The position numbers and the translations under genes are program-made. A stretch of DNA of 64,000 nt from positions 1-64,000 of the IMG/VR virus record IMGVR_UViG_3300049215_000223; one strand, 5' to 3'. Below, piece after piece: positions 9,745 to 33,612 of this stretch. This stretch comes from a virus. The notes below the pieces were generated by a model. It did no database searches. It had not been told where the DNA came from and was given only the letters and a program-made list of their open reading frames with translations. Each line of letters opens with the position of its first letter. Position 1 is the first letter of the stretch.

Positions 9745-9869
9745 GCTCTTTCGTTCCGTTCCTTATACTCTATGGTTCTAGCCGTTGGGCGATGGGCGCC
9801 GTTCAGCCACACTGTAATTGTTACTGCAACATAGCAATAACTTTTTCTATGTGCTCGTCCTGCAAACCG

Positions 9870-10229
9870 TCATTGAACTTGGTTGCCACCAATCATTTGA
9901 CCCAACCGAAGATGGGGGTGCTGAACCCAAATGCTATACAGCTTCTCTACCATCATTCGTTTTTGTTTGAGACCCAAGGCATGTCCCCATTTAGCTCCAT
10001 TCCACCAAGCTTTACCAGTTGCTTCGCGTTGCTCATACCAGGCATCATTAGCCAGTCGAGCCTTTTCTTCTGCTGCCTTAGCCTTCATAGTAATATGATT
10101 AAGGTCAGTTTCCAACTCTCTGTTTCTTTCACTCAGAGCTTGAACGAGTTTCTCCAGTTCCACTACTCGTGGTGAACAGACGGAGCAAGCACATCGAACT
10201 AACTGGCTTGTATGTTTAAACTCATCCAT
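9870..10229 (-). CDS. Hypothetical coiled-coil protein
   Basis: CACSVC N-terminus; HPHLRLGQMI end. Confidence 0.55.
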   Translation of the reverse strand: MDEFKHTSQLVRCACSVCSPRVVELEKLVQALSERNRELETDLNHITMKAKAAEEKARLANDAWYEQREATGKAWWNGAKWGHALGLKQKRMMVEKLYSIWVQHPHLRLGQMIGGNQVQ

Positions 10230-10377
10230 TGTTATCCCTCACCAATACTTGGCAATGAAATGCCATGCCACGCAAATGGCTGCGATAGTTGCAGCCAAAG
10301 ACAATAGCATTGTCACAATCCACACTACTAGGAAACCACTAACAAAAGTGGCTCCTGAATTGAAACGCGCTTTCATT

Positions 10378-10590
10378 TCAGCGGCGACCGAGAATCGTGG
10401 CTACGATGGCAACCAGAAGGAACAGGAGGAGGATCGAAAGACCAATGCCCGCACTGATCCAAAGCGGCGAAAGAACCCAAAGCCAGCTCCAAGTGATCAC
10501 ATGACCCAGCTTGAGACCGATGAAGAGAAGTGTGAGCAGCCCGGCAAATCCAACACCACTCGACGAAGACGACGATGAACTATCACTCAT
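10378..10590 (-). CDS. Small phage membrane protein
   Basis: GVGFAGLLTLLFIGLKLGHVITWSWLWVLSPLWI, a pattern I recognise from many phages. Confidence 0.75.
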   Translation of the reverse strand: MSDSSSSSSSSGVGFAGLLTLLFIGLKLGHVITWSWLWVLSPLWISAGIGLSILLLFLLVAIVATILGRR

Positions 10591-10938
10591 GATACTTATT
10601 CCTTTTTGTTTTGTTTATGCAGATTCTGCCAGATGATTTTCTGGCGAAAAATTCTTCTTCATAACCATCTAGATGAGGTCGGTCTGTCAACCATTCTTCA
10701 TGGAAGTATTCCGACCTAACATTCAATTCTTGTTCCCACCTGTAACGCTCCTTCAGATGAACCGAAATCTAATTCTTCAAAACCAGAATCGGTTAATTTA
10801 TTGATGAAGCGGGTGTACTTCCTATCCGGGTTATAAACCCGTTCCTTCGGCATGGAGTCCAAAAGATCTTGTGCCGAACCCATCTTCACGTGCTTCATTT
10901 TCATTTCTCCTGGCTTTACGCCAATTGATTGTTTCGTT

Positions 10939-11424
10939 TCACTCGTAATGCGGGCGAGGAGTTGACTCGCCCGGATGCTCTTCAACGCAGATACTCAACT
11001 CGGCACCACCTAGTACCGAATAGATATTACCTTCCTGCACTTCACCGAAGATGTTTTGCAGGTGCTTTTTGAATTGATCAACTTGCTTCTCGTCGGGAAC
11101 CAATTGGAATCCCCACTTGCAAGCTTTGATTGGATTGCCGTCGTCATCCTTAGCGCCTTCTTTGGCGCGGTTACAGGTCCAACAGGATGAGTCGTGATGT
11201 TCGTGCGAAGTGGCTTGAACCGGAATGCTGGCAAGAGGTTCACTATGATTGAACCACCATCCACCTTCTTCGGGTCCACCATAGTGGCGAGTCACCTGAT
11301 AAGCATTGACATACATCAATGTAGATGTGCCTGGGCGAACGTAATCCTCAGGAGGATAATCACATTCATGGCATGCGCCACAGCTATCTATCTCTTGGTC
11401 ACATGTCATACATACTTGACTCAT
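10939..11424 (-). CDS. Hypothetical protein
   Basis: YVNAYQVTRHYGGPEEGGWWF...PHYE. Confidence 0.7.
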   Translation of the reverse strand: MSQVCMTCDQEIDSCGACHECDYPPEDYVRPGTSTLMYVNAYQVTRHYGGPEEGGWWFNHSEPLASIPVQATSHEHHDSSCWTCNRAKEGAKDDDGNPIKACKWGFQLVPDEKQVDQFKKHLQNIFGEVQEGNIYSVLGGAELSICVEEHPGESTPRPHYE

Positions 11425-11426
11425 GA

Positions 11427-11711
11427 TTATTCGTCCTTCATGTCTTTCATTCCATGATGATCAACGACTTCGCCTTGACGCTTGTCCATGTACCTGACGA
11501 CTTCATCCAGAGAAACCGGACGATACTCGTGAGTAATTTCTTTGCAGTCCACTCCAACGTCAACGCTCTTTCCATGAGGAGGAAGCGAGCCGTGAGAATG
11601 TCCATACAAATGAATTGAATCGTGATGTGACTTGTTCCAAACACGCTGCCCGTAATGGAACAGAACGATGAACTTGCCTTCGACTTTCAATTCTTTATAG
11701 TTTTGAAACAC
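11427..11711 (-). pseudogene. C-terminal remnant of a calcineurin-like metallophosphoesterase
   Basis: IVLFHY, HLYGHSHG and VDVGVD present; N-terminal DxH/GD/GNH motifs absent. Confidence 0.75.
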
Positions 11712-11832
11712 GATTGGGTATACATCTGACAATTGCGTGTCCTGTTGCCGCACTTGTAATAGTGCAAAAGGCGAGCTAACTCTAGAAGAGTTTAGAAGTT
11801 GGGCACTTAGACTGGCGGAAAATCTAAGCTAA
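11707..11832 (+). pseudogene. C-terminal remnant of an HNH endonuclease (not in track)
   Basis: NTIGYTSDNCVSCCRTCNSAKGELTLEEFRSWALRLAENLS-stop. Confidence 0.7.
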
Positions 11833-11837
11833 CATTT

Positions 11838-12362
11838 TTACCCGAATACGTGTTTGAACATTTTGCATTGATAGCACAAGTATGTGCCATCACGCTTGTC
11901 TGCGTAAGCGTCTGGATTATACTCGGCGTGAGAGCCACGACAAGTAGCTCCAGGAGTTGTAGCTTGGAAAGGAGAATCATCTTCATCCTCTTCTTCCTCG
12001 ACCTCTTCTACCTCCTCCTCGTCACACAATGCCACGAAGAAGTCGGGAGCCCAAGCAGTGGGAACACAACCTACAGTAGAGATTTGGTGTTCATTTACGT
12101 AGTAGAATTGAACATGTTCTGAATCGCAATTAATATTGCACGTGTTCCAGAACTCCAAAACTTTATCAAGCTGATTTAGAAGCACAAAATTATTCAGAGC
12201 TTGTGCGTCAGTTGCTTGATCCACATCGCTCATGTCCCATTCGTTTTCGATGATGGACATGATTTCCGTACTTGCTTGCGTGAGCGCTTCGTACTCTGTA
12301 TTCCAAAGAGTAATCCTATTCTCGTCGTCATACGGATATGACATTGTGAGTACCCACACCAT
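11838..12362 (-). CDS. Acidic hypothetical protein with C-terminal Cys motif
   Basis: GAAAGGA RBS after motif copy 12395; DGTYLCYQC end. Confidence 0.65.
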   Translation of the reverse strand: MVWVLTMSYPYDDENRITLWNTEYEALTQASTEIMSIIENEWDMSDVDQATDAQALNNFVLLNQLDKVLEFWNTCNINCDSEHVQFYYVNEHQISTVGCVPTAWAPDFFVALCDEEEVEEVEEEEDEDDSPFQATTPGATCRGSHAEYNPDAYADKRDGTYLCYQCKMFKHVFG

Positions 12363-12437
12363 GATACTTCGTCCTTTCAATTACTAGGTTCATACCGTTG
12401 GGCGATGGGCTAGTTACAGCCACAACAGAATATTGCA

Positions 12438-12453
12438 TGCAAAATCTGTGCCA
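12438..12453 (-). promoter_or_regulatory. Single sigma54-type -24/-12 site
   Basis: TGGCACAGATTTTGCA (GG-N10-GC), upstream of motif copy 12395. Confidence 0.55.
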
Positions 12454-12475
12454 ACGATTTCAGAAAAAAGATAAA

Positions 12476-12521
12476 TGGCTGTCCAGCCTGGACTCGAACC
12501 AGGGACCTGAGCTACTGAACA
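12476..12521 (-). ncRNA. Internally deleted tRNA (acceptor stem, T-arm and CCA; no anticodon arm)
   Basis: TGTTCAG-TAGCTCA-GGTC-CCTGG-TTCGAGT-CCAGG-CTGGACA-G-CCA. Confidence 0.7.
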
Positions 12522-12526
12522 ATACT

Positions 12527-12727
12527 TCAAAGGAAAATGCGGCGAAGATATTCGCGCGCAATTACGAATGGAATGAAAGGCAATGCAAAGACTGCTAGCC
12601 CACCATCACCACTATGATCGCTCTTGTGACCAGAAATTGCATACCACGCCCAAACAACAGCGCATAATGCTAACCACAAAAACAGTAAGGCTAGTGGGAC
12701 ACCCACCACCCAATAAATGACATGCAT
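12527..12727 (-). CDS. Membrane protein
   Basis: Two hydrophobic segments. Confidence 0.6.
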   Translation of the reverse strand: MHVIYWVVGVPLALLFLWLALCAVVWAWYAISGHKSDHSGDGGLAVFALPFIPFVIAREYLRRIFL

Positions 12728-12940
12728 TTAGTTTTTCCAATTCTCCCAAAGTCTTAGAGCCCGTTCCTTATTCGGAGTACAACGCTCACGAACGTATACA
12801 TCAAGAGGCTCTTTGAATGTGCGCCCGCATACAAGGCAGTCTGCACTAGACTGCATCCCTAAACGATTAGTGTTTTGATGGTGAGCCAATGCATGACCAA
12901 ACCTATCAAACACAATCTTGGGATCGTATGGGGAACTCAT
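12728..12940 (-). CDS. Hypothetical protein
   Basis: CLVCGR motif; abuts neighbour. Confidence 0.55.
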   Translation of the reverse strand: MSSPYDPKIVFDRFGHALAHHQNTNRLGMQSSADCLVCGRTFKEPLDVYVRERCTPNKERALRLWENWKN

Positions 12941-13486
12941 GGCTTCTTGAGGAAGAGACGTAGTAGTTGATACACTAGACCAACCAGAAAGCCTGTAGCA
13001 AAAATTGCCCAGCTATATTTCCAACCAAACCCAGCCCAGCCCATGCAATGAATCCCACAACTAGCAGGATTGGTTGGAGTAGCCAGCAGATAGCAATAAT
13101 GATATCGCTTTTCATTTCTCCAACTCTGCTTTCAGTTCGGTTGAGTCACTGCTTTCTAGAAGAGCAACGATCCACTGTGTAAGCACATGCTCTATGCCTT
13201 GACGAGGCATTCCGCTACGCTCCATATTCAGATGGAATTGAACTTGCTCCAAAATAGCTTTCTTGCCTTCGGGTCCGATTTTCATATTCGCTCCAAAAAA
13301 TTGTCCGGGTTTGTTTTATGAGAGAAGGTGTCGTCTGTAAGCAGCTTGTCCGACAGACTACCCGGAACCCTGGTCAGCCACACATCCCTATGCCCTGACC
13401 ATTTACTCTTGGATGCTTATGGTTGTTCTTAGATTTAGCCGCCCTTCATAGAGGGTAACCTAAGAGCCATTGGGGATTACATCTTG

Positions 13487-14197
13487 TTACTTTAGAAGTC
13501 CACGTACACCTGAACCCAAACCAGGTTTGGATTGCAAAGTGGATCCAGCTTGGTGACCTGTTCGCCACGCATCGGCATCAATGTTAGACTTGAAGCTAAC
13601 TGATCTAGATGAAGGATACTTGTGCTTCATAAGAGCGGCTGCATCATCCGCATGTTTATCCACAATTGCCAAAGCACTTGAAGATGCTTGCGCACGAACT
13701 TCTTTCTTGGCGGCAGCTAGCGATTCACCAATCGCTTGCACTGCGCCGAGGTAGAAACTGTTGTGCCAATGCTTGCCTTCACCACGATTGAGATCGCGAG
13801 GAGCAAGTAGATTGGCAAGACGAACCAGCTCTACCGCGAAGTAGGCATACTGATATCGCACCGTAGCAATATCAGACGGACGACCAATGCAATAGAATCC
13901 AAGCTTGCGATCCGCATTGTATCTGAGAACACCCTCGCACGCATATGCTTGCGTCAAGTATGTTAGCATTACATTCTGCCAACGCGTTTGCCGTTGATTC
14001 CAATCGGTAACTGCAATGCCATCTTCGATGGTTACTTCATTGCTACCTTCGGTGATTTCCAATTCAGCTTCTGCCAGGCAGTGTTCCTGAATTAGCTTCT
14101 CAGCCAAACGCGCAGCCGTAGCCGCTTCGTTCAGATTGCTGGATGTAGAAAGGTTCCGTAGTTTACGAACCTTATCGATCACAGATTCTCGTTCCAT
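13487..14197 (-). CDS. DUF2786-domain protein
   Basis: VIDKVRKLRNLSTSSNLNEAATAARLAEKLIQEH N-terminus; SFYLGAV and GHQAG motifs. Confidence 0.8.
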   Translation of the reverse strand: MERESVIDKVRKLRNLSTSSNLNEAATAARLAEKLIQEHCLAEAELEITEGSNEVTIEDGIAVTDWNQRQTRWQNVMLTYLTQAYACEGVLRYNADRKLGFYCIGRPSDIATVRYQYAYFAVELVRLANLLAPRDLNRGEGKHWHNSFYLGAVQAIGESLAAAKKEVRAQASSSALAIVDKHADDAAALMKHKYPSSRSVSFKSNIDADAWRTGHQAGSTLQSKPGLGSGVRGLLK

Positions 14198-14206
14198 TGT
14201 TTCCTC

Positions 14207-14923
14207 TTAGGGACAGCAGTATACGTGATTGGTTGAATCTACCAATGTACAAGGTGAACTCATACTTCCACCGAAATGACACTGATATGCAGAGTTTAGT
14301 CCGCTACAATCAGAGTCGAAGCCAGCAGCCTTGCCGCACGCGCAGACTTCTCCGTACACACAAGAACCATAATTGCAATTTCCGCAAGCAATGGTTCCTC
14401 CACACTGATCGCTTTGCGTATCGCAAAGCTCGTAGCCTTCCCAATTGCAGCTGCCCGTATGACCACACACCTGAGTGGTCAAGCAGGATTCACCGCTGCT
14501 GCAAGTGGTACCACATTGGGCGGGCGTTCCGCAATTGATATTGCCACCGCAGTTGTCGGAATGATTTCCACAATAGGGCAGACCACCATCCGCAGGATTG
14601 GTGCACGCTGCACTCTTGGTCAAAGGCACACACGAGTCTTGCCCGGATGAAGAATCCAAGGAAGAGTCATTGACTGGATTGATAGAAACATCTTGGCTCC
14701 CACCATCCAGCCCAACGCTTCCATCCACATCATTGCACTGACATGGATCGTATCCACTCTCATCCTTGGAACAAGTCTGAAAACTGCTGGTCCCATTGGG
14801 ACACACGCATGAGAGTGCTTGTCCAGACGTGCACTTGATATTGGAGACAACAGAATCTCCAACGCAAGCAGCGATGGCGAGACCAGCCATCATACTCATG
14901 ATTATGTAGCTATGACGGGTCAT
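14207..14923 (-). CDS. Cysteine-rich lipoprotein of myxobacterial style
   Basis: Lipobox IAAC, D/S/G linker (DGG, DSS), repeated D.CGG.I.CG modules. Confidence 0.75.
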   Translation of the reverse strand: MTRHSYIIMSMMAGLAIAACVGDSVVSNIKCTSGQALSCVCPNGTSSFQTCSKDESGYDPCQCNDVDGSVGLDGGSQDVSINPVNDSSLDSSSGQDSCVPLTKSAACTNPADGGLPYCGNHSDNCGGNINCGTPAQCGTTCSSGESCLTTQVCGHTGSCNWEGYELCDTQSDQCGGTIACGNCNYGSCVYGEVCACGKAAGFDSDCSGLNSAYQCHFGGSMSSPCTLVDSTNHVYCCP

Positions 14924-15371
14924 GGTTTCTCCTGAAAACAACTGCACTCAGTGGGTCGCCCACCACCATGGTAGCTCGTTCTAACACCGGATTCTGCGTG
15001 CAGGAACTTTTAGGTTAGGATTGACGTGGGCTAGATCCGGCGCTTCATCAGCAAGCTGATCGAATTGCCTGGGGATTGCCTCGTCGCCTTATTAGCCTAA
15101 CCAAAAGAAATGCGGGCGCTAATACGGAGCAGCTATGCCGGAAAGGAGGACTTGTTGCCTATCCATATCGGCGCCCAGCGCAATATAGGGGAGTCGAACC
15201 ACCCACAACAGGTTCCGGTGAACGGATTACCATTGCCCTCTTTCCGGAGGAATTGCAATTGCTCTCAGCCTTTGAGACGAAAGAGCTTAGTAAGAAGATA
15301 CGCTATGAGATATAGCACTAGCAGTGCCATACCAATTACACACAACGTACCAACGATGTCGTATAGAGTTT

Positions 15372-15713
15372 TCATTCGCTTGGGAGCAAGTCCCGAATCT
15401 TGGCGAGACGTGCAATCATGTAATCGACTATCTCACGATTGTGAAAGTCTGATCGTTTTGTGTTGGTGATTGCTTCTGCCGCCTCTAACCAAGCATCACT
15501 CATTTGGCAAATCATATTGCCTGTAGAGTCGCATTGCCTAACTGCGACTGCTAGAAGCTCCTCAGCAGTAACAATGGTGCCTGTATCTGGATTGCGGTAA
15601 GTGGTCATGAGATCCGGATAGAGATTTCGCATGCGCTTGCCTTGCTCGGCATACGCTCGAAGACTCGCGCGAAAAACGGTCCAGTCGTCTTCTGACATGA
15701 GATTTGTAGTCAC
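15372..15713 (-). CDS. Hypothetical protein
   Basis: 113-aa ORF, strand context. Confidence 0.55.
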   Translation of the reverse strand: MTTNLMSEDDWTVFRASLRAYAEQGKRMRNLYPDLMTTYRNPDTGTIVTAEELLAVAVRQCDSTGNMICQMSDAWLEAAEAITNTKRSDFHNREIVDYMIARLAKIRDLLPSE

Positions 15714-15790
15714 GACTCCACCTGCTTATGCCGAGCACGACCTCGTGTTACCTCACACACCCTCGAGCGATTCACTAAAATCGCTTCCCC

Positions 15791-16468
15791 CTATGGGATC
15801 TCGATCGTCCCGCGGTAAATCTCAACGTTGGCACGCACCCCAATCGTCATACGCAGTGCGCGATCTAGAGTGTCCTCATCCACGTCACGCACAGGAATAA
15901 CCTGGAGTCGTGACCCATCACGACGATACGAGCGCACCCAACTCGCGCGTTCCAATATGTCTTCAATCGGCTCAAGAATCTCCGCCGCGAGGATCTTGGC
16001 TACCTCGGCAGCATAGCGACCCTCTTCATATTCAACGGTAGTGTACCCCTGCTCACCGGTTTCCGGATTCTGCGCCCATGAGTCTGTCACGCGCGCGCAA
16101 CCGCAACGCATGCAACACTCTGTCACGATGACGCCGCCGCCGTTCCCATGTACGCCCGGATTCTCTTCGAGACCGCCAAGGATCTCGTACGGGCTCTGCC
16201 AATCGTGACTGCGAGCTGAGCACTCGGGCTCCTCCGCATCGAGTACCACGGTACGCGAGCCTAGCTCCTCGTAGTAGTCCTCATCTTCCGGCGCGCGCAC
16301 CTCGACGTGCACAAACAGCGCGCCCTCGCCGTCGTAGTTTGCGCGATCGACATTCGACTCTGCGATATCGAGCGCGTCATCCACGCTATCAGCCTCACAC
16401 GTGCCGTACTCTTCGCCCTCCTCGTATAGCGTCCACGTCCTCTCAGCGATTAACCGAGTTTTTGTCAT
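15791..16468 (-). CDS. Hypothetical GC-rich protein
   Basis: MTKTRL start; GGLEENPGVHGNGGG, CMRCGC. Confidence 0.65.
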   Translation of the reverse strand: MTKTRLIAERTWTLYEEGEEYGTCEADSVDDALDIAESNVDRANYDGEGALFVHVEVRAPEDEDYYEELGSRTVVLDAEEPECSARSHDWQSPYEILGGLEENPGVHGNGGGVIVTECCMRCGCARVTDSWAQNPETGEQGYTTVEYEEGRYAAEVAKILAAEILEPIEDILERASWVRSYRRDGSRLQVIPVRDVDEDTLDRALRMTIGVRANVEIYRGTIEIP

Positions 16469-16710
16469 GTCTGTATCTGCCCTTGCGCATGGTTGAATGT
16501 AGCCGAATATCAAGCAATCGGATCTTTTTGCCGTTGGTCCCCGCACGATTGACTCGTCGCAATAGACACATGTGCCAACCCACGTGTCACGGATATTTAG
16601 AAGTAGATCATAGTACTAGGCAGCTCTCTTCCTCTTGATCCTTTACTGCTGCTCAACTTCTAGTGCTATGCGATTGATATGTAATCTCACGCACAGCTAT
16701 GAAAAGAATA

Positions 16711-16737
16711 AGGGGATAGGTTTGCACCCTATCCCCT
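16711..16737 (-). terminator. Intrinsic terminator-like hairpin
   Basis: AGGGGATAGG/CCTATCCCCT 10-bp stem just after the 16747 stop, followed by TATTCTTTT on minus. Confidence 0.65.
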
Positions 16738-16746
16738 CAGACTAGT

Positions 16747-17106
16747 TCACTTCGCGGGCTGATCGGCGCGGCGCGTGACGCCGCCCTTCTTGCCCTTCGC
16801 GATCACGAAGAGGCTCGAATCGCCCTTCGCGTTTTCGCGGACGTACTCCATGACGCGCGTTTCGAGCGTCTTGTAGTTTTCCGGCTGAGCATTGAGCTGC
16901 TGAAGCGCAAAGCCAGCGACGGCGGGCATGTTGATCGAAAGACCCTTGTGCGAGTCGAACACGGTGCGGACCGCATCCGCAATCGCCGAAAGCTCCGTCT
17001 CGCGTTCCGCGACGTACTTGACGAGAGCCGCATCGAACGCAAGGCGCGAAGCCTTCTCGTCGATCTTGCCATCCTTCGTAGCGAGTGTAATCGTAAGTGT
17101 ACTCAT
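16747..17106 (-). CDS. Putative DNA-binding protein, paralog of 26131..26487
   Basis: Shared INMPAV/LNVPAL and AKGKKGG/AKGKNGG. Confidence 0.7.
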   Translation of the reverse strand: MSTLTITLATKDGKIDEKASRLAFDAALVKYVAERETELSAIADAVRTVFDSHKGLSINMPAVAGFALQQLNAQPENYKTLETRVMEYVRENAKGDSSLFVIAKGKKGGVTRRADQPAK

Positions 17107-17451
17107 GATTTCGTATCTCCAATTTGATTTTCTGTGTTTGTATTTACTATGCCGATTTCACGAAATTGTGAATAGATCGTTAGCTCATACAACGAAGCAA
17201 AGTAAGTGCTAAGATTGCGCGGCGTGGTGCCACGCTTGGACTTGCGCCCAGCACCTACCGATTCATGCCGTTTGGCGATGGGCACCGTTACAGTGTCCCT
17301 GAAATTAGAAGTACATGTTATTATGCTCGCTCAACACGAGACACATATATAATTTCCTTGGTACATGTACTAAAACCAAGGTTCATATCCTATATGGCGG
17401 CGGGTGCGGGCTGCTTAAAATTTTCTTTTTGGTTCAAAGTTAGAAATTGTT

Positions 17452-17958: not shown

Positions 17959-17964
17959 GAATCC

Positions 17965-18731: not shown

Positions 18732-18733
18732 GT

Positions 18734-23131: not shown

Positions 23132-23383
23132 TTAGTCTACGAGAGCTTGTTTCACGAACAAGGCATGATCTTTTTTCTGATCGCCTCTCAGCCCAAGAGA
23201 GAACGCTTCTCCATATAGGACAATCGTTCCATCCATCAGCCGAAAGAATCCGCCTCGAACAGCTTTCCACTGTTTGGGCATTCGTGCGGCGAAGTCTGCA
23301 TGCTTCTCCGTCTCTGGAAAGAGATACAGAGTTTCGATTCCGTTATCCTCGTATTGGAATACCAAGTACTTCATCCCATTCAT
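23132..23383 (-). CDS. Hypothetical protein
   Basis: VRGGF...LYGEAFSLGL. Confidence 0.6.
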   Translation of the reverse strand: MNGMKYLVFQYEDNGIETLYLFPETEKHADFAARMPKQWKAVRGGFFRLMDGTIVLYGEAFSLGLRGDQKKDHALFVKQALVD

Positions 23384-23670
23384 GATTGATCTTTGGGAGC
23401 GTTGTAGAATATCTCTACCGCGAATCCAAACTTCTCACGAGCACGCATCGCCGCGAGAATGGTTTCGTTCCTGGTCTTCTGATTCATTCGACCAAAGGGC
23501 ATGTATCCACCTCCATATCGACCAAACCAAAAGAACGACATTGCACTGTTTGAAATGTCATCGGGCAGAATCCAACAGCGAGATACCCCGCCGTCTTTCT
23601 GTTTCCAGACGTGTAGCTTTGCTTTCTCATTCATGCCGCAACCTCGCATGATTCGGGCATCTTGACCCAT
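23380..23670 (-). CDS. Hypothetical protein
   Basis: ATGA overlap with neighbour. Confidence 0.5.
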   Translation of the reverse strand: MGQDARIMRGCGMNEKAKLHVWKQKDGGVSRCWILPDDISNSAMSFFWFGRYGGGYMPFGRMNQKTRNETILAAMRAREKFGFAVEIFYNAPKDQS

Positions 23671-24816: not shown

Positions 24817-24874
24817 GATATCCTCGCTTCATGCCGTTGGACGATGGGTTCCTAGGTTTCGCCTTGAAAGAATC

Positions 24875-25805: not shown

Positions 25806-26130
25806 GCTTATTCCTTCTAGCCGTTTGGCGATGGGAAAAGATTCGTCTCTACACCATTGCAATGGCTACTCATCCCTCATCACCTTGGGTTGCAGCCCGC
25901 TGGTAAGTAGACTTTGGATATTCCCACTAATATGCAGAGACGAACATTCTCGTAAGCACTGTTCTACAGACGTCCCAATAACCGATCTCAGAGGCGATCG
26001 AATCTCTTACTCTCGATTAGAGGTTAGTGGCGATCATCCCACGACTATCTGTAGAACGGTACCTACGAAGATACCGTGTGTTGGGAATTGGGGCATATGT
26101 TTCCACATGCCCCCATGTTCCCTTTGCGGA

Positions 26131-26487
26131 TTACTTGGCGTCCTTCCAACGCCAGATGCCGCCGTTCTTTCCCTTCGCCGTGCCGAGGAGCTTGCCCGAA
26201 GCCTTCTCCGCGTGACGGTTCTCTTCGAGAAACGCCTTGACGCGTTCCGAAAGGCGCGAATACGTCGCGGGAGTCGCCTGCAACGCCTGCATGACGAAAC
26301 CTTCGAGCGCAGGAACGTTCAGACGAGCACCCGGATAGCGATCGAAGATCGCATTCACCGCGTTGCTGATTGCTTCCTGATCCGCCGATTGCTCCGCCAC
26401 GTAGACGTCGAATGCATCCGACGCCGCCTGAAGAAACGCCGCCTTGTCCGAAAGGCTCTTGACCTCGATCTCGATTGACTTGCTCAT
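26131..26487 (-). CDS. Putative DNA-binding protein, paralog of 16747..17106
   Basis: See paralog motifs; downstream of motif copy 26546. Confidence 0.7.
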   Translation of the reverse strand: MSKSIEIEVKSLSDKAAFLQAASDAFDVYVAEQSADQEAISNAVNAIFDRYPGARLNVPALEGFVMQALQATPATYSRLSERVKAFLEENRHAEKASGKLLGTAKGKNGGIWRWKDAK

Positions 26488-26580
26488 GATGTTTTTCCCT
26501 TTTTCCTTTTCCTTGTTTCGTGACCCTTGTACCCTCATCTTCATGCCGTTTGGCGATGGGGCTTAGACTTGACCGAACGG

Positions 26581-26790
26581 TCAGTAATCGTCTTCGATCT
26601 GCTCTTCGACTACATCCTCGTAATTGCCCCGCTCGCCCAATACCTCAGGCGCATAGGTGCTCTTGACTACGTGAATGCATTCGTCGCAAACCCTAGAAAG
26701 CGGAATCCCTCGCGCATCATTCATCCACCAAGAATTCATCTTGTCATGGGTTTGCTTGTGCGCTTGCAGATTGTCTCGATTGACGCTCAT
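26581..26790 (-). CDS. Small hypothetical protein
   Basis: ATG 9 nt after motif copy 26800; DARGIPLSRVCDEC. Confidence 0.65.
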   Translation of the reverse strand: MSVNRDNLQAHKQTHDKMNSWWMNDARGIPLSRVCDECIHVVKSTYAPEVLGERGNYEDVVEEQIEDDY

Positions 26791-26880
26791 GCTCTCTAAC
26801 CGTTGGGCGATGGGAGGTTTTGAGAATTGGTATAGGGACTGCACATAGCAATCCCCATACCAAGTTACGCGAAAGCCCTT

Positions 26881-27300
26881 TCAGGCTTTCAGCACCCGCT
26901 TTGCAGCGCTGATCATTGCGGCAAGCACCGCATCGCTCTTGCTCACCAATTCGGGATACTCTTGACGCAAAGCGTCGTATCCAGCTTTGCCAGGAGCAAT
27001 GCCGTTGTTCTTCTGCACGTAGGTGCGAATCTTGCCCGACATGCTGTTGGGCTGATTGCCACGCCCCTTTTTGCCCTTGCCCTTGTTGACTTCCTTTTCC
27101 AGGGAAGCCAGGGAGATCGCATCTTGGCTCTGCTCGTCGATGCTCTTTTGATCCTTGAGCGTCAAGCATGCCGCCAGCATCTTTCGATGATTGTCGGTCA
27201 TGGGTTCCTTGACGTTCGGCTTCAAACCGAGAAGGTTTGCATGCGTGCCGACGATGGCGACCAGGGATTGAAGCTGCTCGCGACTGTTGATCTGAATCAT
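26881..27300 (-). CDS. Basic hypothetical protein
   Basis: AGGT RBS; K-rich KGKGKKGRG segment. Confidence 0.65.
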   Translation of the reverse strand: MIQINSREQLQSLVAIVGTHANLLGLKPNVKEPMTDNHRKMLAACLTLKDQKSIDEQSQDAISLASLEKEVNKGKGKKGRGNQPNSMSGKIRTYVQKNNGIAPGKAGYDALRQEYPELVSKSDAVLAAMISAAKRVLKA

Positions 27301-27647
27301 CGAACCACCTTACCTTTGAAACCGCACTTCTTGGCGACGTGCGGGAAGTGACGACGAAGCGTCTTCACACGAGACGGATTGACCCTGTAGGACATGCTGC
27401 CTTCGATCTTCATGATGGCACCATGCTCGCATGCACGACTCAGATCGTGCAGGATGTGATTCAGGTTGTAGGTTCGGTCCACCTTGAGAAAGTGAACCAG
27501 GGCTTCACCTGCCGTGAACGTTCCACCCGATTCCAGACGGGTCCAGAAGAGAAGGTGTCGAACGCGCGAAGGCACGTTGTGATGCACCGCATTCCCTTTG
27601 ATCGTGGTGAACTCTGCCGGAAACACACTCGCATTCAAGTAACGCAT
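27297..27647 (-). CDS. Hypothetical protein, possible winged HTH
   Basis: Downstream of motif copy 27668; ILHDLSRACEHGAIMKIEGSMSYRV. Confidence 0.55.
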   Translation of the reverse strand: MRYLNASVFPAEFTTIKGNAVHHNVPSRVRHLLFWTRLESGGTFTAGEALVHFLKVDRTYNLNHILHDLSRACEHGAIMKIEGSMSYRVNPSRVKTLRRHFPHVAKKCGFKGKVVR

Positions 27648-27688
27648 TCTCGTTCTCTTGTTTCTCGCCGTTGGGCGATGGGTTGTGG

Positions 27689-28225
27689 TTACTTCGGAAT
27701 CACTGTCAGACCACGACTCGATTGCATGTACTCCCCCGCATAGAAGCGCTTGAGGAGATCCCACAATGCCGCACGTGGTATCGGAAAGTTTGGAACCTGA
27801 TTGATCTTCTCTTCCCTATTGAACTTGCGTCCAGGGATATTGCGCCAAGCTTGCAAGGTCTCTTCCTTGTAGGGCGCACGAATGTGCAGGTAATCACCAT
27901 GGTCTTCTACCATGACAGTCACCTTGCGATCGATGAGAACGTTTGCGAGCATATCGAAACCGATCTCGCGCAGACGAACGATTGCCGCCATTAGATGCTC
28001 ACCGGGCAATCCACACGCAATGCTGTAGACGATTCGATTGCCTTCCTTGCGGGCGTCTTCTGAAACGTTGGGCGCTTTCTTGCCCATGAAGCCATGCTTG
28101 CTTCGACATGAAGGACCCATGCCATATTCGATAGACTTGGAATCCAGTAAGGCTTCCCCGCAGATTGCGCAGGTTACCTTCAACATCTTGGTTGCGGGCG
28201 CGTCATGATAATCTGTCATGCTCAT
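27689..28225 (-). CDS. DUF6011-like zinc motif plus HARP-like domain protein
   Basis: CAICGEALLDSKSIEYGMGPSC; LHIRAPY...WRNIPGRKFN. Confidence 0.6.
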   Translation of the reverse strand: MSMTDYHDAPATKMLKVTCAICGEALLDSKSIEYGMGPSCRSKHGFMGKKAPNVSEDARKEGNRIVYSIACGLPGEHLMAAIVRLREIGFDMLANVLIDRKVTVMVEDHGDYLHIRAPYKEETLQAWRNIPGRKFNREEKINQVPNFPIPRAALWDLLKRFYAGEYMQSSRGLTVIPK

Positions 28226-28408
28226 ACCCTCACATTCAAACCGTTTGGCGATGGGTTACTTACACCTACGCTTGTAGTCAGAACGATAGGTTCTGGCGCT
28301 TGTGTTGAAGTGTACCATGCCCATTGCCGCAAGCGCAGGCATGCTGATGTACTTAGCATCGCGATACTTTTTGAGTACCGTATCCAATGCTCGCTTCATG
28401 GAAGCCAT

Positions 28409-28630
28409 CTACTTTGGTCCCGTCCAAGTCAGCACATGGTTATCCTCAGACACCATGCCCGTGCGCTTGAGAAGATCGATGACCTTGTTGTAGGATTCCT
28501 GGGATAGCTGTCCCATGAGTTCGGCATACAGTCTGCCGTTGGGAACACTTCCCAAGTCACGGATAGCAGATCCTACTGCCATGACTGCGCTCAATCCCGC
28601 TTTGACTTCTTCCTTGGTGACCGTGTTCAT
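28409..28630 (-). CDS. Small winged-helix-like protein
   Basis: GSVPNGRLYAELMG...LKRTGMVSEDNHVLTW; ATG 15 nt after motif copy 28646. Confidence 0.55.
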   Translation of the reverse strand: MNTVTKEEVKAGLSAVMAVGSAIRDLGSVPNGRLYAELMGQLSQESYNKVIDLLKRTGMVSEDNHVLTWTGPK

Positions 28631-28767
28631 GCATTCACCTTCTAACCGTTATGCGATGGGTAGCACACACTCCCGATTGAGAGGGTATCAGGGAATACAA
28701 GGGATTCTAACCCCGCATGCGTATCCCTGATACCTTGTCGTTTCTCCCGTTATGCGATGGGTTTCTC

Positions 28768-29403
28768 TCAGCCGTGAGAGAAGCTTGCTCGCGTGGTAAC
28801 TGCGGCTTTCATTCCGAAGGTAAGCTTGCCAGTTGATCCGCCTGTCTTACGGCATGCTGGACCCTTGGGCTGAGCTAGAATCCTAGCAATGGCATCTTGG
28901 CGAAGGATGACGGTAGAGATCGGTTGACCGTCCTTGCCAAACATCTTGGTTGACACGACCGTGCCAAACCAATCGGGCGCACCATCGAAGAGACGACGAT
29001 CACACCATCGATCCGCATCCGAACACGAATCGAACCCTTGACGCAAGGTGATATCGTCACCCGCCGCGTTGAAGATACAAGCGATCCACGCCTTTTCCTC
29101 TCGCGGTTCTTTGATCGGTTTGGTCGCAGGTTCACCCTTGGCGCTCGTGTCGGCATTGGCGATGTTTTCCGCCAACATGTGACCCAGCACGACCGCAGAG
29201 ATTGCTTGCAGTGCAGGCGTAGGATACAATTCCTTCGCATCCAATTGCGTGAGAATGGGAGTCACGAATTGCGCCAACGTTCCCGTCAGAAGCCATTCGC
29301 GATGTTGGGCGATGAAACCTTCTGCACTACGTGCGCCCTGCTTGGCAGCCTTATTCAGGAAGCCCTTGGCAGTCATCTTGCGCTCTTTCTTTTCGGTGCT
29401 CAT
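28768..29403 (-). CDS. Hypothetical protein
   Basis: GAAAGG RBS after motif copy 29418. Confidence 0.7.
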   Translation of the reverse strand: MSTEKKERKMTAKGFLNKAAKQGARSAEGFIAQHREWLLTGTLAQFVTPILTQLDAKELYPTPALQAISAVVLGHMLAENIANADTSAKGEPATKPIKEPREEKAWIACIFNAAGDDITLRQGFDSCSDADRWCDRRLFDGAPDWFGTVVSTKMFGKDGQPISTVILRQDAIARILAQPKGPACRKTGGSTGKLTFGMKAAVTTRASFSHG

Positions 29404-29589
29404 GACTTACCTTTCATACCGTTGGGCGATGGGTTGACGTTGCGAATTAGCTAAGAGCATCCCCTTGGGGCATTACGCTTTTATGCTTAGCTATAGAGAG
29501 TAAAGAGCGGAGCACTATAGCATGGTTCAGTAACTAATTACAGCACGCAGCGCGCCTGTATAACACACTATAGTCGGTCTGCTCTTAGT

Positions 29590-29668
29590 TGTGGATTAGG
29601 GAATCGAACCCAATGCGACACCAACCTTGGAAGGCGCAACGTCCCGTTGCCTTTTCAGTGTCATTCAC
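29590..29668 (-). tRNA. Highly degenerate tRNA-Gly(TCC)-like sequence
   Basis: T-loop GGG-TTCGATT-CCC, CTTCCAA loop, GCAAC/GTTGC hairpin; acceptor stem has mismatches. Confidence 0.3.
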
Positions 29669-30350
29669 AATTCATTGATTCACGCCGTTTGGCGATGGGC
29701 TTCACTTCCCAGTCAATCGATGGTAGCCGTAGAAGACGACACCACCGATCAAGAAGTACCACGGCACGCCGTGATCGGAAACATGAAACGCCGTTTGACC
29801 CGTTCCCGGAATCATCGAGATCACGATCGCCATGGTGAAAACCGTGGCGAGAAGAATGACGAACAATCGACCCATTGTCTTGCTCCCTTGCCCTTCGCTT
29901 CATGCCGTTTGGCGATGGGAAAAGCTACGGCAAAGTAAAAACGACCACGCCCTACTTTGCCGTAGCATGTTTTGGTTTTACGCAGCTTGTCTCAGGTACT
30001 TCGCGCCGTTTGGCGATGGGTATGTTTCATTGTTCACATACCTTTGGTTATTAGCCGTTTGGCGATGGGCTAGCTTCCCTTGGCACCATTCTTGCAACGC
30101 GTGCGCGCGTCGCGCGTTATGAGGCGGCGACTTTGGCACGCACCCTGCACATTGCAACGACCATGCCATATCCCGTTTGACATTATGTGAAGGCGTAGCC
30201 CGCTGCGCTGACCATACATTGCCCTATATGACACTACATGTATGGTGGGCAAGTGCGTTCGCTATAAAATTTCAGCCACACTGGAATCCCGCTTGGCATG
30301 TAAACTGCATATAGCAACAAGCATGCCAGCCCGAAAGCGGAAAAAGAAAA

Positions 30351-30387
30351 AGCCCTACCACCTTTCCGCCAAGAAGGTGATAGGGCT
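30351..30387 (-). terminator. Intrinsic terminator-like hairpin
   Basis: GCCCTA-CCACCTT...AAGGTG-ATAGGGC with TTTTTCTTTTT on minus. Confidence 0.55.
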
Positions 30388-30447
30388 AAGAAGTTTAGTA
30401 GCCCGAGCAGGGCATGATGAACAGCTCGACGAGACACTCGATCTTGA

Positions 30448-30717
30448 TCATGACTCCTCCTTCAGAAGAGATCGGTTCGTTCGCTGGGCAGAGCCACACG
30501 CGTGCATTGCGGGTAACTCTGAATCAGACACATCCCCTTGAGGTCGCACCAATCCTCCAAGGACAGATGCGACACCACCGTGCCATACAGCACGTCGCGT
30601 GGATTGTGACGCTTGCAGACCATCACGTGATACTGCATCGCGATAGCTTCCGCTTCGACGACACGGATCTCGAATGTCTTGGACGTGAGAAGACTTTGAA
30701 CGACAGTCATCATACAC
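30448..30717 (-). CDS. Hypothetical protein (true frame and start uncertain)
   Basis: Overlapping GC-rich ORFs; an alternative frame ends at 30462. Confidence 0.3.
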   Translation of the reverse strand: MYDDCRSKSSHVQDIRDPCRRSGSYRDAVSRDGLQASQSTRRAVWHGGVASVLGGLVRPQGDVSDSELPAMHACGSAQRTNRSLLKEES

Positions 30718-30943
30718 CTTCCTTCAAGAGACGGGAGAAGTACACTTCCCATTCGCGGGAAGCGATACCAGCAAAGTCGAGAGGAGAACCCTCCTCGTGG
30801 TCTGACTCTTCGGGCAACATGCCCACGAAGGGACAAGTGCTTTCGCAGTCGTCGTCACACGGACCCTCGCGTCGCTCCGATTCACGAAAGCGATCGATTG
30901 CCGTGTAGTCGTCACCTGCAACGATGTCGAGATAGAAACTCAT
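30710..30943 (-). CDS. Acidic hypothetical protein
   Basis: GGAGG RBS after motif copy 30973. Confidence 0.6.
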   Translation of the reverse strand: MSFYLDIVAGDDYTAIDRFRESERREGPCDDDCESTCPFVGMLPEESDHEEGSPLDFAGIASREWEVYFSRLLKEGV

Positions 30944-31611
30944 GTCATCCTCCGATATGATGGCGGTTCATGCCGTTGGGCGATGGGACTCAGGGGAAGC
31001 ACTTGTTATACTTGTCGCGCCAATCCTGAATTGCTGCGTCAGCGCTCGTACCTTTTCCGATGATAGAGTATCCCGGATGATGAGCCGTCCAATCGAATCG
31101 ACTCCACTTCGTGCAGACGATCTGATAGTCCGGTATGTGTGCAGACTTGGGACGTTCCGGTTTCGCAATCAAAGGGATCTTGCGATCTCCCTCGCGAAAC
31201 TCTAGGGAATCGCTATGGGAATTGGGAAACACACAATCCCCTTGTTTGACGTGTTTGATGATACGGGTTAGAGGTATGGCTTTACCATCCGTATCTAGAC
31301 GTGCTTTGGTTGCTTTAGCCATCGAGCCATTCTCGCTTTCGACGAGCATCGTTGGCACGGCGATCCTGCTTGGATCGCATCTTGCCTGCTTTGCGGTGCA
31401 TGGCTGCAACTGCAACCCCCGAACGCTTGGGACGATGATCCTCTTCTTTGATGTGAATCAAAGTCTTGCTCATGTCTACACCTTCAAGCCGTTTGGCGAT
31501 GGGTTTAGGTACGAATCTCGACGATACACAGATAGGCGAGAATACCCACTACCGCCCAACCTGCAAGTGTCATGCCAATGATGACCATGACACTTGTGAG
31601 AGGGGTGGCTT

Positions 31612-31938
31612 TCAATCCCGCCCCATTGCTTCATTGTAGCCATCGCAACCAAACGCCATGCCAGCTTGCATAGCATTCTCGCGCTTCCAATCGGAATCGT
31701 CGTCGCGAGTTTTGCGGTAGTTCGGATTCTTGCGGTACCTGGAAGAGATCCCGTGCTTTGATAGCTCGGAATCCTCCAATCCGTCAAGCTCGATGTACTT
31801 CACGCTTGAATCCCCAGGATCCGCGTGGAATGCTTCGATCGCTTCTTCGAGTGAATCGAAGTCTTCGCCCGTGAAGCAATCGTCGTTTTCCTCGTCAGGG
31901 TGCGAACCCCAATGCGAGACACTGAACGGCTTACTCAT
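31612..31938 (-). CDS. Hypothetical protein
   Basis: GAGGTG RBS after motif copy 31967; SHWGSHPDEENDDC...GMAFGCDGYNE. Confidence 0.7.
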   Translation of the reverse strand: MSKPFSVSHWGSHPDEENDDCFTGEDFDSLEEAIEAFHADPGDSSVKYIELDGLEDSELSKHGISSRYRKNPNYRKTRDDDSDWKRENAMQAGMAFGCDGYNEAMGRD

Positions 31939-32219
31939 CCGTCACCTCACATCAACCTGTTTCACACCGTTTGGCGATGGGCGTCGCAGTAACGACATTG
32001 TGAGCGAATGCACATGGCATACTTATTGCTCACGTAGTCCGCGCATGAGTACATGCACCTTGGATACCGCAACAATTGCACGACAACCGTTTTACCGTAT
32101 CGCCGCGACTGACAACCTACCTTTCATACCGTTTGGCGATGGGACATTCATCCAGCTGCAATTGACTTGGCTCGAACATTGCACATTGCAAAACCAATGC
32201 CAACCAAAAAGCAGAACGC

Positions 32220-32251
32220 AAAAAAGCCCGACACCCTTTCGGGCATCGGGC
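32220..32251 (-). terminator. Intrinsic terminator
   Basis: GCCCGATGCCC-GAAA-GGGTGTCGGGC-TTTTTT right after the 32273 stop. Confidence 0.75.
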
Positions 32252-32272
32252 TCTTTCTGCTGCGGCTGGAAA

Positions 32273-33055
32273 TCAGCTTTCCAGTGCGGCGCGAATCTCG
32301 GCGAGGCGATCTTCTTCGAGCTTGATCGTCTGCGCGTAGGTCAGCGCTTGCGTCGCACTGAGCACCGCGAAGCACTCCGCTGCTGGCATGGCGAGCGCTT
32401 GATCGAGCAAGCGCATCTCGTTTTCGCTGAGCGCTTCCCTCGCCGCTTCGCGAGTCTCGCAGATCGTATCAGCCGCGAGACGTTCGCGAGCGATCAGATC
32501 GCGCATCCGTCGCGCCTCGTAATCGGGCATTCCTGCGACGTAACCCTTACCCGTGGCGCGACGTTCGACCGTTTGGACGGGGCGAGGGTCGAGCGCACGG
32601 ATCGCTGTCATGTTGGCGCGCAATTCTTGCGCCCCGAACGTGAGGACGTTGTGCTCGTGAACGTTGCCCGAATCATCTACGACGCGCGGACCTTGCGCAT
32701 CGTAGCCAGTGAACGCGGCGATGGCACGGATCTTGTCGTTCAGGATCTCCTTGTCCAGCGTGAACGGAATTCCGTTCTCGGTGTAACGAGTGCCAGCGGC
32801 GCGCATGGCGAGCACGAAACCCTTGGCATCGATCGTGCCTTTCGGCTCGACGGGAAAGGCGAGACGCGGGGCGGCGAGCTCGATGGGTGCGCTCTCTTCT
32901 TTCTTGGCACGGAGCTTGCGCATCGTGGGTTTCACGACGGGCGACGCAGGGCGGTCGATCGCCTCGACGATGGCATGGCTCTTGCTATCGTCCGTGACGG
33001 GCGAGGCGTAGGACGCGGCGAGGGAAGCGAGAAACGTTGCGGTCAGATCAGTCAT
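32273..33055 (-). CDS. First gene of the leftward GC-rich region, Ala-rich hypothetical protein
   Basis: AGGAGG RBS; preceded by motif copy 33085 and sigma54 palindromes. Confidence 0.75.
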   Translation of the reverse strand: MTDLTATFLASLAASYASPVTDDSKSHAIVEAIDRPASPVVKPTMRKLRAKKEESAPIELAAPRLAFPVEPKGTIDAKGFVLAMRAAGTRYTENGIPFTLDKEILNDKIRAIAAFTGYDAQGPRVVDDSGNVHEHNVLTFGAQELRANMTAIRALDPRPVQTVERRATGKGYVAGMPDYEARRMRDLIARERLAADTICETREAAREALSENEMRLLDQALAMPAAECFAVLSATQALTYAQTIKLEEDRLAEIRAALES

Positions 33056-33612
33056 GGCGGGAACCTCCTAACCCTAGGTGCTAGCCGTTTGGCGATGGGG
33101 CGACCGCCCTGTTTTGCCTTGGCTCGGGCTTTGCATAGTGCAAAAGGTATGCCAAAGTAGGGAAAACTCCCACCATGTAGGCAAAACTCTTATCCTTCGT
33201 GGTACCGACCTTGCTTATTGCAAAAACAATACCAATGATCAATAAGAAAAGAAAAAACTATTATGTTATCATTGTAAAAGAATAATTACTATCTAATTGT
33301 AATTGATCGATGGTATGATCATTGCTTAGAGCAATAACAGTGCCACCCCCAATTCCACAGCCAGAGTAAACCTGGGGGATGACCGGCATTGGCACGCTTC
33401 TTGCCTCCCAAACGGGGGTCTAACTGCCAATTGAACCACCAAACTAGATACAAACAGATACAAACTAACCCCAAACAAACATAATTACCATATCTGTATC
33501 GCCATTACCATATAAAACCATACAAATATCGTCACATATGGTCATTTTACAATTCCATATTCCTTAAAGCATCTTATCACATTATAAACAATATAATATC
33601 AACCATACATGA

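Follow-up and report, generated by a model that had tools for sequence, protein, structure and literature searches.

In a giant-phage record a short, strand-polar sequence word recurs ahead of small genes and small structured RNAs, and we hypothesize that it is a phage-specific promoter, or the core of one, for the early arm of the genome. The window, meaning the whole stretch of DNA analysed, comprises bases 1-64000 of the 178,722-bp virus record IMGVR_UViG_3300049215_000223 (G000), rated 42% complete; its word of 21 nucleotides (nt) lies on one strand of a GC-richer arm that starts at a gene-poor "hub" at 33.1-33.96 kb. Judged from its relatives, the word is most likely the form taken in this phage by a strand-polar cis-element that recurs across the clade and has CCCAT(C/T) as its core. 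A role as transcription start would best explain its specificity, its polarity, its 5' placement before coding and non-coding units alike, its retention ahead of homologous genes and its concerted evolution. Because no reader of the word was found, we hold the promoter reading at about an even chance.

Searched as CCCATCG-NNN-AACGG, the word has 21 matches in the window, all of them on the minus strand, with the 15-mers spread over positions 9782-33099. Eighteen copies are exact and three are variant, where chance would give 0-0.14 (0.14 in shuffled sequence), and 17 of the 21 fall within 25.8-33.1 kb. Both counts, and the single strand, agree with the initial annotation on this DNA, and no further copy exists outside 9776-33099 across the whole record. 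According to an alignment of the copies, the conserved block is a contiguous 21 nt with sharp edges, CCCATCGCC[A/C]AACGG[C/T]WWGAA, with no conservation 5' of block position 1 and no two-box structure. A position weight matrix applied to both strands of the 178.7-kb record scores the 21 sites at 21.5-36 bits, the weakest being copy 11 (a CAT variant, 21.5 bits), and the next best position at 9.4 bits. Variation in the 15-mer is restricted to positions 8-10, which read CCA, CCC, CAT or TCC; only these three vary, not the five central nucleotides reported earlier. The UCG/CGG mini-stem proposed with them shows no covariation: position 16, with which the unchanging G7 would have to pair, is free to vary. 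We found no dyad symmetry, palindrome or attC-like fold in the 21-nt word, and no sequence complementary to it anywhere in the sense transcripts.

The phage collection contains no close DNA relatives. Exact-word scans returned single chance matches only in IMG/VR (with A or C at position 10), mostly single matches in metagenomes (two short contigs carry two copies each) and single matches only in a genome collection, where 0 of 80 examined bacterial matches lie inside a tRNA gene. Since the bacterial matches are single and none of these 80 sits in a tRNA gene, the word is neither a host tRNA segment nor a common host repeat, the latter being an origin that the initial annotation had raised.

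The placement of the copies is equally specific. Fourteen of the 21 lie 15-37 nt ahead of a start codon led by a Shine-Dalgarno (SD) sequence, several start 0-6 nt past the preceding stop codon, the word nearly fills the spacer, and in many copies its purine-rich tail runs into the SD. An ATG follows the 15-mer at exactly 15 nt in five copies (31489, 29419, 28646, 28241 and 25821), of which only the last three had been listed before. Not all copies lead an open reading frame (ORF): those at 30069, 30020, 28761 and 29699 precede structured non-coding sequence, the one at 32143 is without a convincing ORF, and for the one at 17282 the nearest start codon is 161 nt away. With no downstream ORF, at least the copies at 30020, 29699 and 28761 lead structured RNA units instead; therefore, the signal is not translational. 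Behind such copies come either segments of 80-100 nt that fold better than shuffled sequence (z = -3.2 to -4.0) or a tRNA-like structured element. Copies are also placed after the strong intrinsic terminators 32244-32226 and 30385-30345 and after a hairpin-TTTT at 29966-29924, and those directly behind strong terminators fit a promoter because a new start is needed there. The arm shows no enrichment of sigma70-like promoters (16 vs. 21.6 expected).

Long and short words in related phages

Relatives were found by a tail-sheath search, which recovered contigs of up to 446 kb; the clade measures roughly 450 kb, and its related contigs number in the hundreds and reach ~500 kb. What we call phage B consists of contigs G004 and G006 (G006 and G007 come from the same sample as G004 or a sister sample). 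G004 opens within a 14-copy cluster of CCCATCGCCTAACGG, and G006/G007 carry 15 more copies of this type over 97 kb, oriented with the genes and sparser with distance, so that phage B has in total 29 copies of TT-CCCATCGCCTAACGG across ~100 kb, thinning away from the hub. Three Logan contigs, reached via homologues of a 211-amino-acid (aa) gene of the window, hold 10 copies in 2.5 kb (L449), 20 in 12 kb (L450) and 14 in 11 kb (L452), with 0 in antisense. In these three contigs as in the window, the long form of the word (15-21 nt) is strictly intergenic.

Four homologous gene families are led by the motif in relatives despite ~30-35% protein identity and a scrambled gene order. The homologues of the 211-aa gene in G006, G004, L449 and L450 keep the long motif 5' of the gene, and that in G008 has CTCCCATTCAC there. 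L449, which provides the only close alignment, is syntenic with the window over 30.1-28.4 kb, with seven consecutive copies positionally conserved and one synteny break exactly at a motif copy. The seven aligned copies differ only at positions 8-10, which are CCT in L449 and CCA, CCC or CAT in the window; CCT occupies these positions in every copy of L449, L450, L452 and phage B and in 0 copies of the window. Such a concerted change at positions 8-10, with the rest invariant, is as expected for sites read by one trans-acting factor.

Shorter words occur in other lineages. The word of G008, CTCCCATTCAC, is 11 nt long compared to the 15-21 nt of the window lineage, and gCTCCCATTCAC is found there in a sense-to-antisense ratio of 56:1, mostly 20-30 nt ahead of start codons. 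The genomes G003 (IMGVR_UViG_3300036715_004471, 100% complete) and G009 (IMGVR_UViG_3300010403_000705, 97% complete) lack the long word save for a few copies, e.g. CCCATCGACCAACGG ahead of the homologue of the gene at 17106. CCCATC, the six bases with which the word opens, is the most strand-skewed hexamer in both (z = 18.4 in G003), with sense-to-antisense counts of 352:4 in G003 and 246:4 in G009, where a Markov model predicts ~70 antisense copies in each. The hexamer is 12-21-fold enriched in the GC-rich arm of the two genomes, and its density declines from the hub, beside which there are 81 (G003) and 53 (G009) copies per 10 kb. Its copies lie both inside genes, where every codon phase is represented, and between them, and they peak 20-29 nt ahead of start codons. 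In a zone of 140-155 kb upstream of the hub, where replication and structural genes are located, CCCATC is missing from both strands, the sense count in the late-gene zone being 0-1 vs. 6-10 expected. By length, the 6-nt word has 250-350 copies and the 15-21-nt words 20-30 or more. The 11-nt and 15-21-nt words appear to be linked by the CCCAT core, by the homologous 211-aa gene, ahead of which each lineage has a word of its own, and by the bare polar hexamer of G003 and G009.

Two further sequences were considered and set aside. The repeat CCATC-N5-GATGG of G010 encodes a 23-aa protein repeat (HREDGPA) and is unrelated to the word. In G003, at 47980-48010 on the minus strand and 5' of the 211-aa homologue, TAGGTGACACTA shares 12 identical nt with the core of the SP6 promoter and follows a CCCATC at a distance of 20 nt; we treat this identity as chance, which it probably is because G003 has no T7-family polymerase.

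A candidate promoter and its rivals

In our proposal each word marks where a transcription unit begins, the units lying in a GC-rich and probably early arm that runs leftward from the hub at ~33.1-33.9 kb. An RNA polymerase would bind the duplex word, this being either the host enzyme redirected by a phage factor or an unrecognised phage enzyme. Transcription may start within the word or a few bases past it, at the conserved G/A-A-A of positions 19-21; alternatively, it could start ~7 nt after CCCATC, with the hexamer in the role of a -10-like element. From the array, many short early transcripts would then arise, with promoter density peaking beside the hub, which may be the leading genome end, and the repeated words might secondarily serve as homology patches for gene shuffling. 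A promoter role would also account for the purging of antisense 6-nt copies, since these would start antisense or head-on transcription, and likewise for the absence of the hexamer from the late genes. Far more tentatively, we suggest a previously undescribed transcription or transcription-coupled genome-entry system of ~450-kb megaphages, based on a CCCAT-core promoter family whose recognition length evolved from 6 to 11 to 15-21 nt; its reader would be a phage polymerase or specificity factor without detectable similarity to known RNA polymerases or to the phage's own sigma factor. We regard this wider scheme as possible but doubtful.

What could read the word? The answer weighs against a promoter, as neither a polymerase nor a specificity factor for it was found. 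The single-subunit polymerase family PF00940 is absent from G000, G003, G004, G006, G008 and G009, while the T7 control (NC_001604) was detected at E = 1e-109; a phmmer search with the T7 RNA polymerase gave nothing below E = 0.9, and the multisubunit polymerase domains PF00562 and PF00623 had no match. When ~55 large ORFs of G000, G006 and G003, among them nearly all G003 ORFs of at least 450 aa, were scanned against PHROGs and Pfam, again no RNA polymerase emerged. A complete relative such as G003 has roughly 600 ORFs in all. The initial annotation had suggested scanning the genome for a phage polymerase or sigma factor, and such a scan did return a single extracytoplasmic-function (ECF)-like sigma of 209 aa (regions 2 and 4), encoded at G000 89600-90229 on the minus strand, inside the AT-rich replication module. 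Its region 2, however, is 100% identical in G000, G003 and G009 though their words differ, and this sigma could at most read the shared CCCATC core. Also unfavourable are the word itself, which is GC-rich where a melting region is expected, its positions 16-18 in phage B, which are not AT-rich, and the hundreds of intragenic promoters that would be required in G003 and G009, which would be unusual. A promoter had been among the functions offered by the initial annotation; placement, polarity and retention make it the best fit of these, but the absence of a phage polymerase and the invariant sigma do not favour it.

Other searches touched the same question. Sequence searches of the PDB with six giant or unannotated proteins gave nothing, nor did regular-expression scans for Motif-B and DxDxD together with one ESM Atlas look-up. 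The string ADVDGD in a 1179-aa protein was considered as a beta' catalytic motif and rejected; since the family carries a dockerin match (PF00404), it is probably a dockerin-type calcium loop. These phages have no genes for sigma54 or bacterial enhancer-binding proteins, and crude k-mer searches 5' of late genes yielded no late-promoter word assignable to the ECF-like sigma.

Could the word act in the RNA instead? Long precursors might be made from a few hub promoters, and the word, as RNA, might be a site of protein binding or cleavage that sets 5' ends, stabilises the units or frees the ribosome-binding site, in the manner of the footprints of pentatricopeptide-repeat proteins in organelles or of RNase III and RegB processing in T7 and T4. 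Such an intercistronic signal needs no polymerase or sigma. It suits a word that is always in sense, in spacers reduced to stop codon, 0-8 nt, word, SD and ATG, that stands ahead of both mRNAs and small structured RNAs and whose purine-rich tail merges with the SD in many copies; hairpins just 5' of some copies could be 3' protectors. But copies right after the U-tract terminators 32244-32226 and 30385-30345 would be starved of transcript, the distance from word to start ranges from 15 to >150 nt, the word has neither a covariation-supported structure nor a complementary partner in sense transcripts, and the genome-wide purge of antisense CCCATC in G003 and G009 (4 vs. ~70) would stay unexplained, so that we consider this explanation rather unlikely. 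A roadblock or operator of the stoperator type, at which a monomeric phage protein on an asymmetric word halts or modulates the host RNA polymerase depending on orientation, shares its sequence anatomy with the array, namely >20 asymmetric sites in short intergenic spaces with an orientation tied to transcription (PMC9283540). We nevertheless judge it improbable: there is no sign of a temperate lifestyle, the complete relatives have no tyrosine or serine recombinase, and the IMG/VR label "provirus" probably mirrors the GC-rich arm; the sites lie on one arm and not genome-wide, precede small RNA units and follow terminators; and 250-350 intragenic copies make a 6-nt form implausible for a repressor site, nor would antisense purging be predicted.

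The extreme strand asymmetry of G003 and G009 (352:4 and 246:4) would be expected under selection by opposed nicks or by restriction sites in head-to-head arrangement, and it invites a polar DNA signal apart from gene expression, i.e. a strand-specific nicking site, a Chi-like or translocase-orienting sequence, or a one-orientation site that escapes type III or ISP restriction. Strand-specific nicks are known in T5 and phiKMV-like phages, and one-orientation escape from restriction in T7 with EcoP15I. The density gradient toward the hub, a possible genome end, and the many copies inside genes in all three codon phases agree with this, but it predicts neither the peak 20-29 nt 5' of start codons in every lineage, nor the retention ahead of homologous genes, nor the strictly intergenic 15-21-nt forms, nor the 12-21-fold enrichment and the loss of the sense orientation from the late-gene zone; we therefore hold it to be very improbable. 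Least credible to us, with hardly any chance, is recombination as the primary function, in which att-like sites, or sites like the promoter early stem-loops (PeSLs) of T4-type phages, would mobilise gene cassettes. The arm gene order is scrambled between lineages while motif-gene pairs stay together, one G000/L449 synteny break falls exactly at a copy, and shuffling driven by repeated promoter cassettes is known from PeSLs (PMC2839356). Against this, no tyrosine or serine recombinase (PF00589, PF00239) was found in G000, G003, G004, G006 and G009, neither dyad symmetry nor an attC-like fold is seen in the word, whose 15-21 nt offer little length for homologous exchange, and, because G000 and L449 share seven copies in a row at matching positions, most copies are not breakpoints. 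Of the recombination module offered by the initial annotation there remains the one breakpoint, on account of which PeSL-like shuffling is possible as a by-product.

Should the words prove to be promoters, giant phages of a widespread, uncultured clade would run their early programme through a recognition system that has no identifiable reader, pointing to a new polymerase or to a factor that hijacks the host polymerase. The clade also provides a natural series for following a single cis-element from 21 nt down to 6 nt as its copies multiply >10-fold, and the 6-nt lineages, with the opposite orientation purged genome-wide, would give a rare clean view of promoter specificity shaping genome composition. 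In practice, the word is a simple marker of the early arm and its orientation in fragmentary megaphage contigs.

Individual copies, arm and hub

All copies are numbered from the hub and given as 21-mers on the minus strand. Copy 1 (CCCATCGCCAAACGGCTAGCA, 33079-33099) is nearest the hub, the ATG (33055) of a 260-aa gene lying 29 nt past its 15-mer; the homologue in G006 (7513) is also motif-led. Copy 2 (32123-32143) stands 3' of the terminator 32244-32226 and of a sigma54-like palindrome, and its first ORF, 30 aa long and 74 nt on, is unconvincing. The ATG (31938) of a 108-aa gene follows copy 3 (31961-31981) at 28 nt. Copies 4 (31483-31503) and 5 (30967-30987) begin 1 and 2 nt behind a stop codon and precede the ATGs of a 52-aa and a 77-aa gene by 15 and 29 nt, respectively.

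Copy 6 (30049-30069), which ends in CTAATA, is the first of three tandem copies, has its L449 ortholog at 231 and is separated by a 28-nt spacer from copy 7 (30000-30020). An 83-nt non-coding unit that ends in a long hairpin and UUUU comes next; this candidate small RNA (29920-30002, minus strand) comprises an A-rich leader, a 17-bp hairpin and a U-tract and ends just ahead of copy 8 (z = -3.2), and L449 has a different hairpin at this site (z = -4.0). Copy 8 (29899-29919) lies directly after the hairpin and TTTT, 29 nt before the ATG (29875) of a 57-aa membrane-like gene. Copy 9 (29679-29699), 2 nt behind a stop codon, is followed by ~250 nt of non-coding sequence with a structured, tRNA-like RNA (29585-29681, minus strand) that contains the T-arm-like GGGUUCGAUUCCC and is ~95% identical in L449, above the flanking coding DNA. 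The 211-aa gene, whose homologues in relatives are also motif-led, has its ATG (29403) 15 nt behind copy 10 (29413-29433). Copy 11 (28741-28761, CAT variant), 6 nt past a stop codon, leads another structured non-coding unit, a candidate small RNA (28661-28743, minus strand) with a long hairpin and a T-arm-like core that is kept in L449 (z = -3.2 and -3.8).

Copy 12 (28640-28660), the second CAT variant, is 15 nt from the ATG of a 73-aa gene. Copy 13 (28235-28255) abuts a TAA stop, with a first ATG 15 nt on and the SD-led ATG of a 176-aa gene with a domain of unknown function (DUF6011) 21 nt on, while copy 14 (27662-27682) has a stop codon 6 nt before it and the ATG of a 116-aa gene 20 nt after it. 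Behind copy 15 (26794-26814, ending in GAG) the ATG comes 6 nt past the 21-mer with no clear SD. A gene of 118-137 aa, whose G006 homologue (14531) is also motif-led, follows copy 16 (26540-26560); copy 17 (25815-25835) precedes the ATG of a 78-aa gene by 15 nt and copy 18 (24828-24848, TCC variant) that of a 156-aa gene by 17 nt. Farther from the hub, copy 19 (17262-17282) has TGTAAC 4 nt 5' of it and a 119-aa gene 161 nt on, the homologues of which in G006 (50896) and G003 (38510) keep a long motif. Copies 20 (12389-12409) and 21 (9776-9796) lie 32 and 37 nt before the ATGs of a 174-aa and a 62-aa gene, and a single sigma54-like box occurs at 12438-12453 near the former. TGTAAC or TGAAC, resembling an ECF-sigma -35 element, stands 3-4 nt 5' of three hub-distal copies only (17286-17291, 12413-12418 and 9801-9805); distal copies of phage B have AGGGGC-N3-4-TT ahead of the word in its place.

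Rfam recognised no RNA family in 1-36 kb except the tRNA, and neither Rfam nor ARAGORN calls the three motif-led units at 29585-29681, 28661-28743 and 29920-30002, two of which contain the T-arm-like cores GGGUUCGAUUCCC/GGGGUUAGAAUCCC. The word itself resembles tRNA positions 4-24 (end of the acceptor strand, U8 and D-arm). A suppressor tRNA of G003, tRNA-CUA at 15230-15303, reads GGT-TCCATCGTCCAACGGCTAGGG, and the best matches of the word to many phage tRNAs start at tRNA position 4. Because the D-stem cannot form in the word, we retain the likeness only as a possible origin.

The arm (1-33100, minus strand) has a GC content of 43-53%, compared to ~38% in the remaining record, and is built of small, tightly packed, SD-led, co-oriented genes; most of its proteins belong to no family and a few carry phage DUFs. 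Base 1 of the window is a contig end that cuts both array and arm, the equivalent arm of relatives being ~100 kb. In all lineages the arm (window 1-34 kb; G003 20-130 kb; G009 250-330 kb; G008 140-210 kb; G004 1-5 kb) lies 5-25 GC points above the rest, and GC falls from the hub in step with motif density. This richness would suit early genes translated before the phage's own tRNAs appear. G003 has 56 tRNA genes, the arm of relatives includes a tmRNA gene (G006 23279-23637), and relatives have several tRNAs with CUA anticodons (amber suppressors; G006 224399-224553, G003 15230-15303 and 320811-320884). IMG/VR tags G003, G008, G009 and G011 as proviruses, probably because of the GC-rich arm, and pipelines may be expected to mislabel such genomes in this way.

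The hub (33100-33960) is gene-poor, AT-rich and divergent, and both GC content and GC skew change there. It contains direct repeats of ACATATATGACCATATGTTGCCAT at 33603-33660 (two exact copies and one partial), which may be iterons, a packaging site or terminal-repeat sequence, and three face-to-face sigma54-like palindromes. Sigma54-like boxes (TGGCAY-N5-TTGCW) are enriched overall, with 31 found vs. 5.9 expected, and pair face-to-face with a 3-bp gap at 30134-30168, 30294-30328, 32168-32202, 33120-33154, 33200-33234 and 33311-33345; three of these palindromes lie 20-64 nt upstream of motif copies, and one is kept in L449. With no sigma54 or enhancer-binding protein encoded by these phages, the boxes might rather serve a dimeric regulator as its operators.

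The rest of the contig is that of a myovirus, with tail sheath, baseplate wedge, collagen-like fibres, ribonucleotide reductase, DnaB-like helicase, PhoH and a PhuZ-like tubulin. The nearest cultured relatives, Eggerthella phage LE2-3 and Bacillus phage G, are distant (30-34% match over 16-18% of the sheath). A collagen-repeat fibre protein of 2258 aa with 21 Pfam Collagen stretches (G000 171711-178487, minus strand; L009:11711-18487) is the reason for the high GC content at the right end of the contig, and adjoining it is a 1134-aa protein with fused glycosyltransferase and methyltransferase domains.

Comparison with known systems

Promoters of the T7/SP6 type are contiguous blocks of ~20 bp that are oriented with the genes, start transcripts with purines (GAA in SP6), stand after terminators or between packed genes, and co-evolve with their polymerase between relatives. 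The contiguous, sharp-edged 21-nt block with 21 of 21 copies on the coding strand resembles them; on the other hand, the PF00940 polymerase is absent from the complete relatives, and the word is GC-rich, with no TATA-like melting box in phage B. Early promoters of phiKZ-like phages are AT-rich words read by an injected multisubunit virion RNA polymerase, and these phages encode split beta and beta' subunits. Dozens of short, phage-specific words ahead of small early genes in a jumbo phage are common to both systems, but here PF00562 and PF00623 find nothing, and PHROGs, which include the phiKZ proteins, find no RNA polymerase. The start-associated sequence of cluster K mycobacteriophages lies 3-8 nt 5' of start codons and includes the SD, whereas our word stands 15-37 nt and sometimes >100 nt away and also precedes non-coding units.

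Bacterial promoter classes and integron sites are less similar. Compared to sigma70 or ECF promoters, there are no -35 and -10 boxes with a spacer of 16-18 nt, and sigma region 2 does not co-vary with the word. The sigma54 signature TGGCAC-N5-TTGC does not occur in the word on either strand, the sigma54-like boxes being separate from it. Unlike integron attC sites, the word is not palindromic, and there is no tyrosine recombinase.

In cluster A mycobacteriophages the L5-type repressor acts at 13-mer sites. Stoperators of this cluster are asymmetric 13-17-mers with many intergenic copies and an orientation tied to transcription (PMC9283540), and the word is alike in asymmetry, copy number, intergenic position and orientation. 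Those phages, however, are temperate, have an immunity repressor and an integrase, and bear sites on both arms, whereas the phages described here have sites on one arm and no integrase (PF00589/PF00239; no search was aimed at a repressor); moreover, the copies here precede small RNAs, and relatives have 6-nt and 11-nt versions. The PeSLs of T4-type phages combine a sigma70-like -35/-10 promoter with a G/C stem-loop terminator (PMC2839356, PMC4122927). Like them, the words are repeated in hyperplastic regions of small orphan genes, after stop codons and before the next gene, where shuffling is prone to occur, but the word has no -35 or -10 box and no obligatory stem-loop, as hairpins precede only some copies.

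The closest published case is Bacillus thuringiensis phage 0305phi8-36, in which a self-similar word of 21 bp, not present in the genome of the host, recurs ~14 times in non-coding spacers; these copies were proposed, without transcript mapping, to be middle promoters of a phage-directed polymerase; the phage encodes a candidate novel polymerase (orf99) and no sigma factor (PMC2147016). That word is likewise unmapped and its reader unproven. Both are multi-copy words of 21 bp in the spacers of a large phage, but the sequences are unrelated, our phage has one sigma and no polymerase candidate, and the variants in its clade shrink to a 6-nt core. Besides the lack of a recognisable reader, what is new here is the purging of one orientation genome-wide and the clade-wide series of words from 21 to 6 nt.

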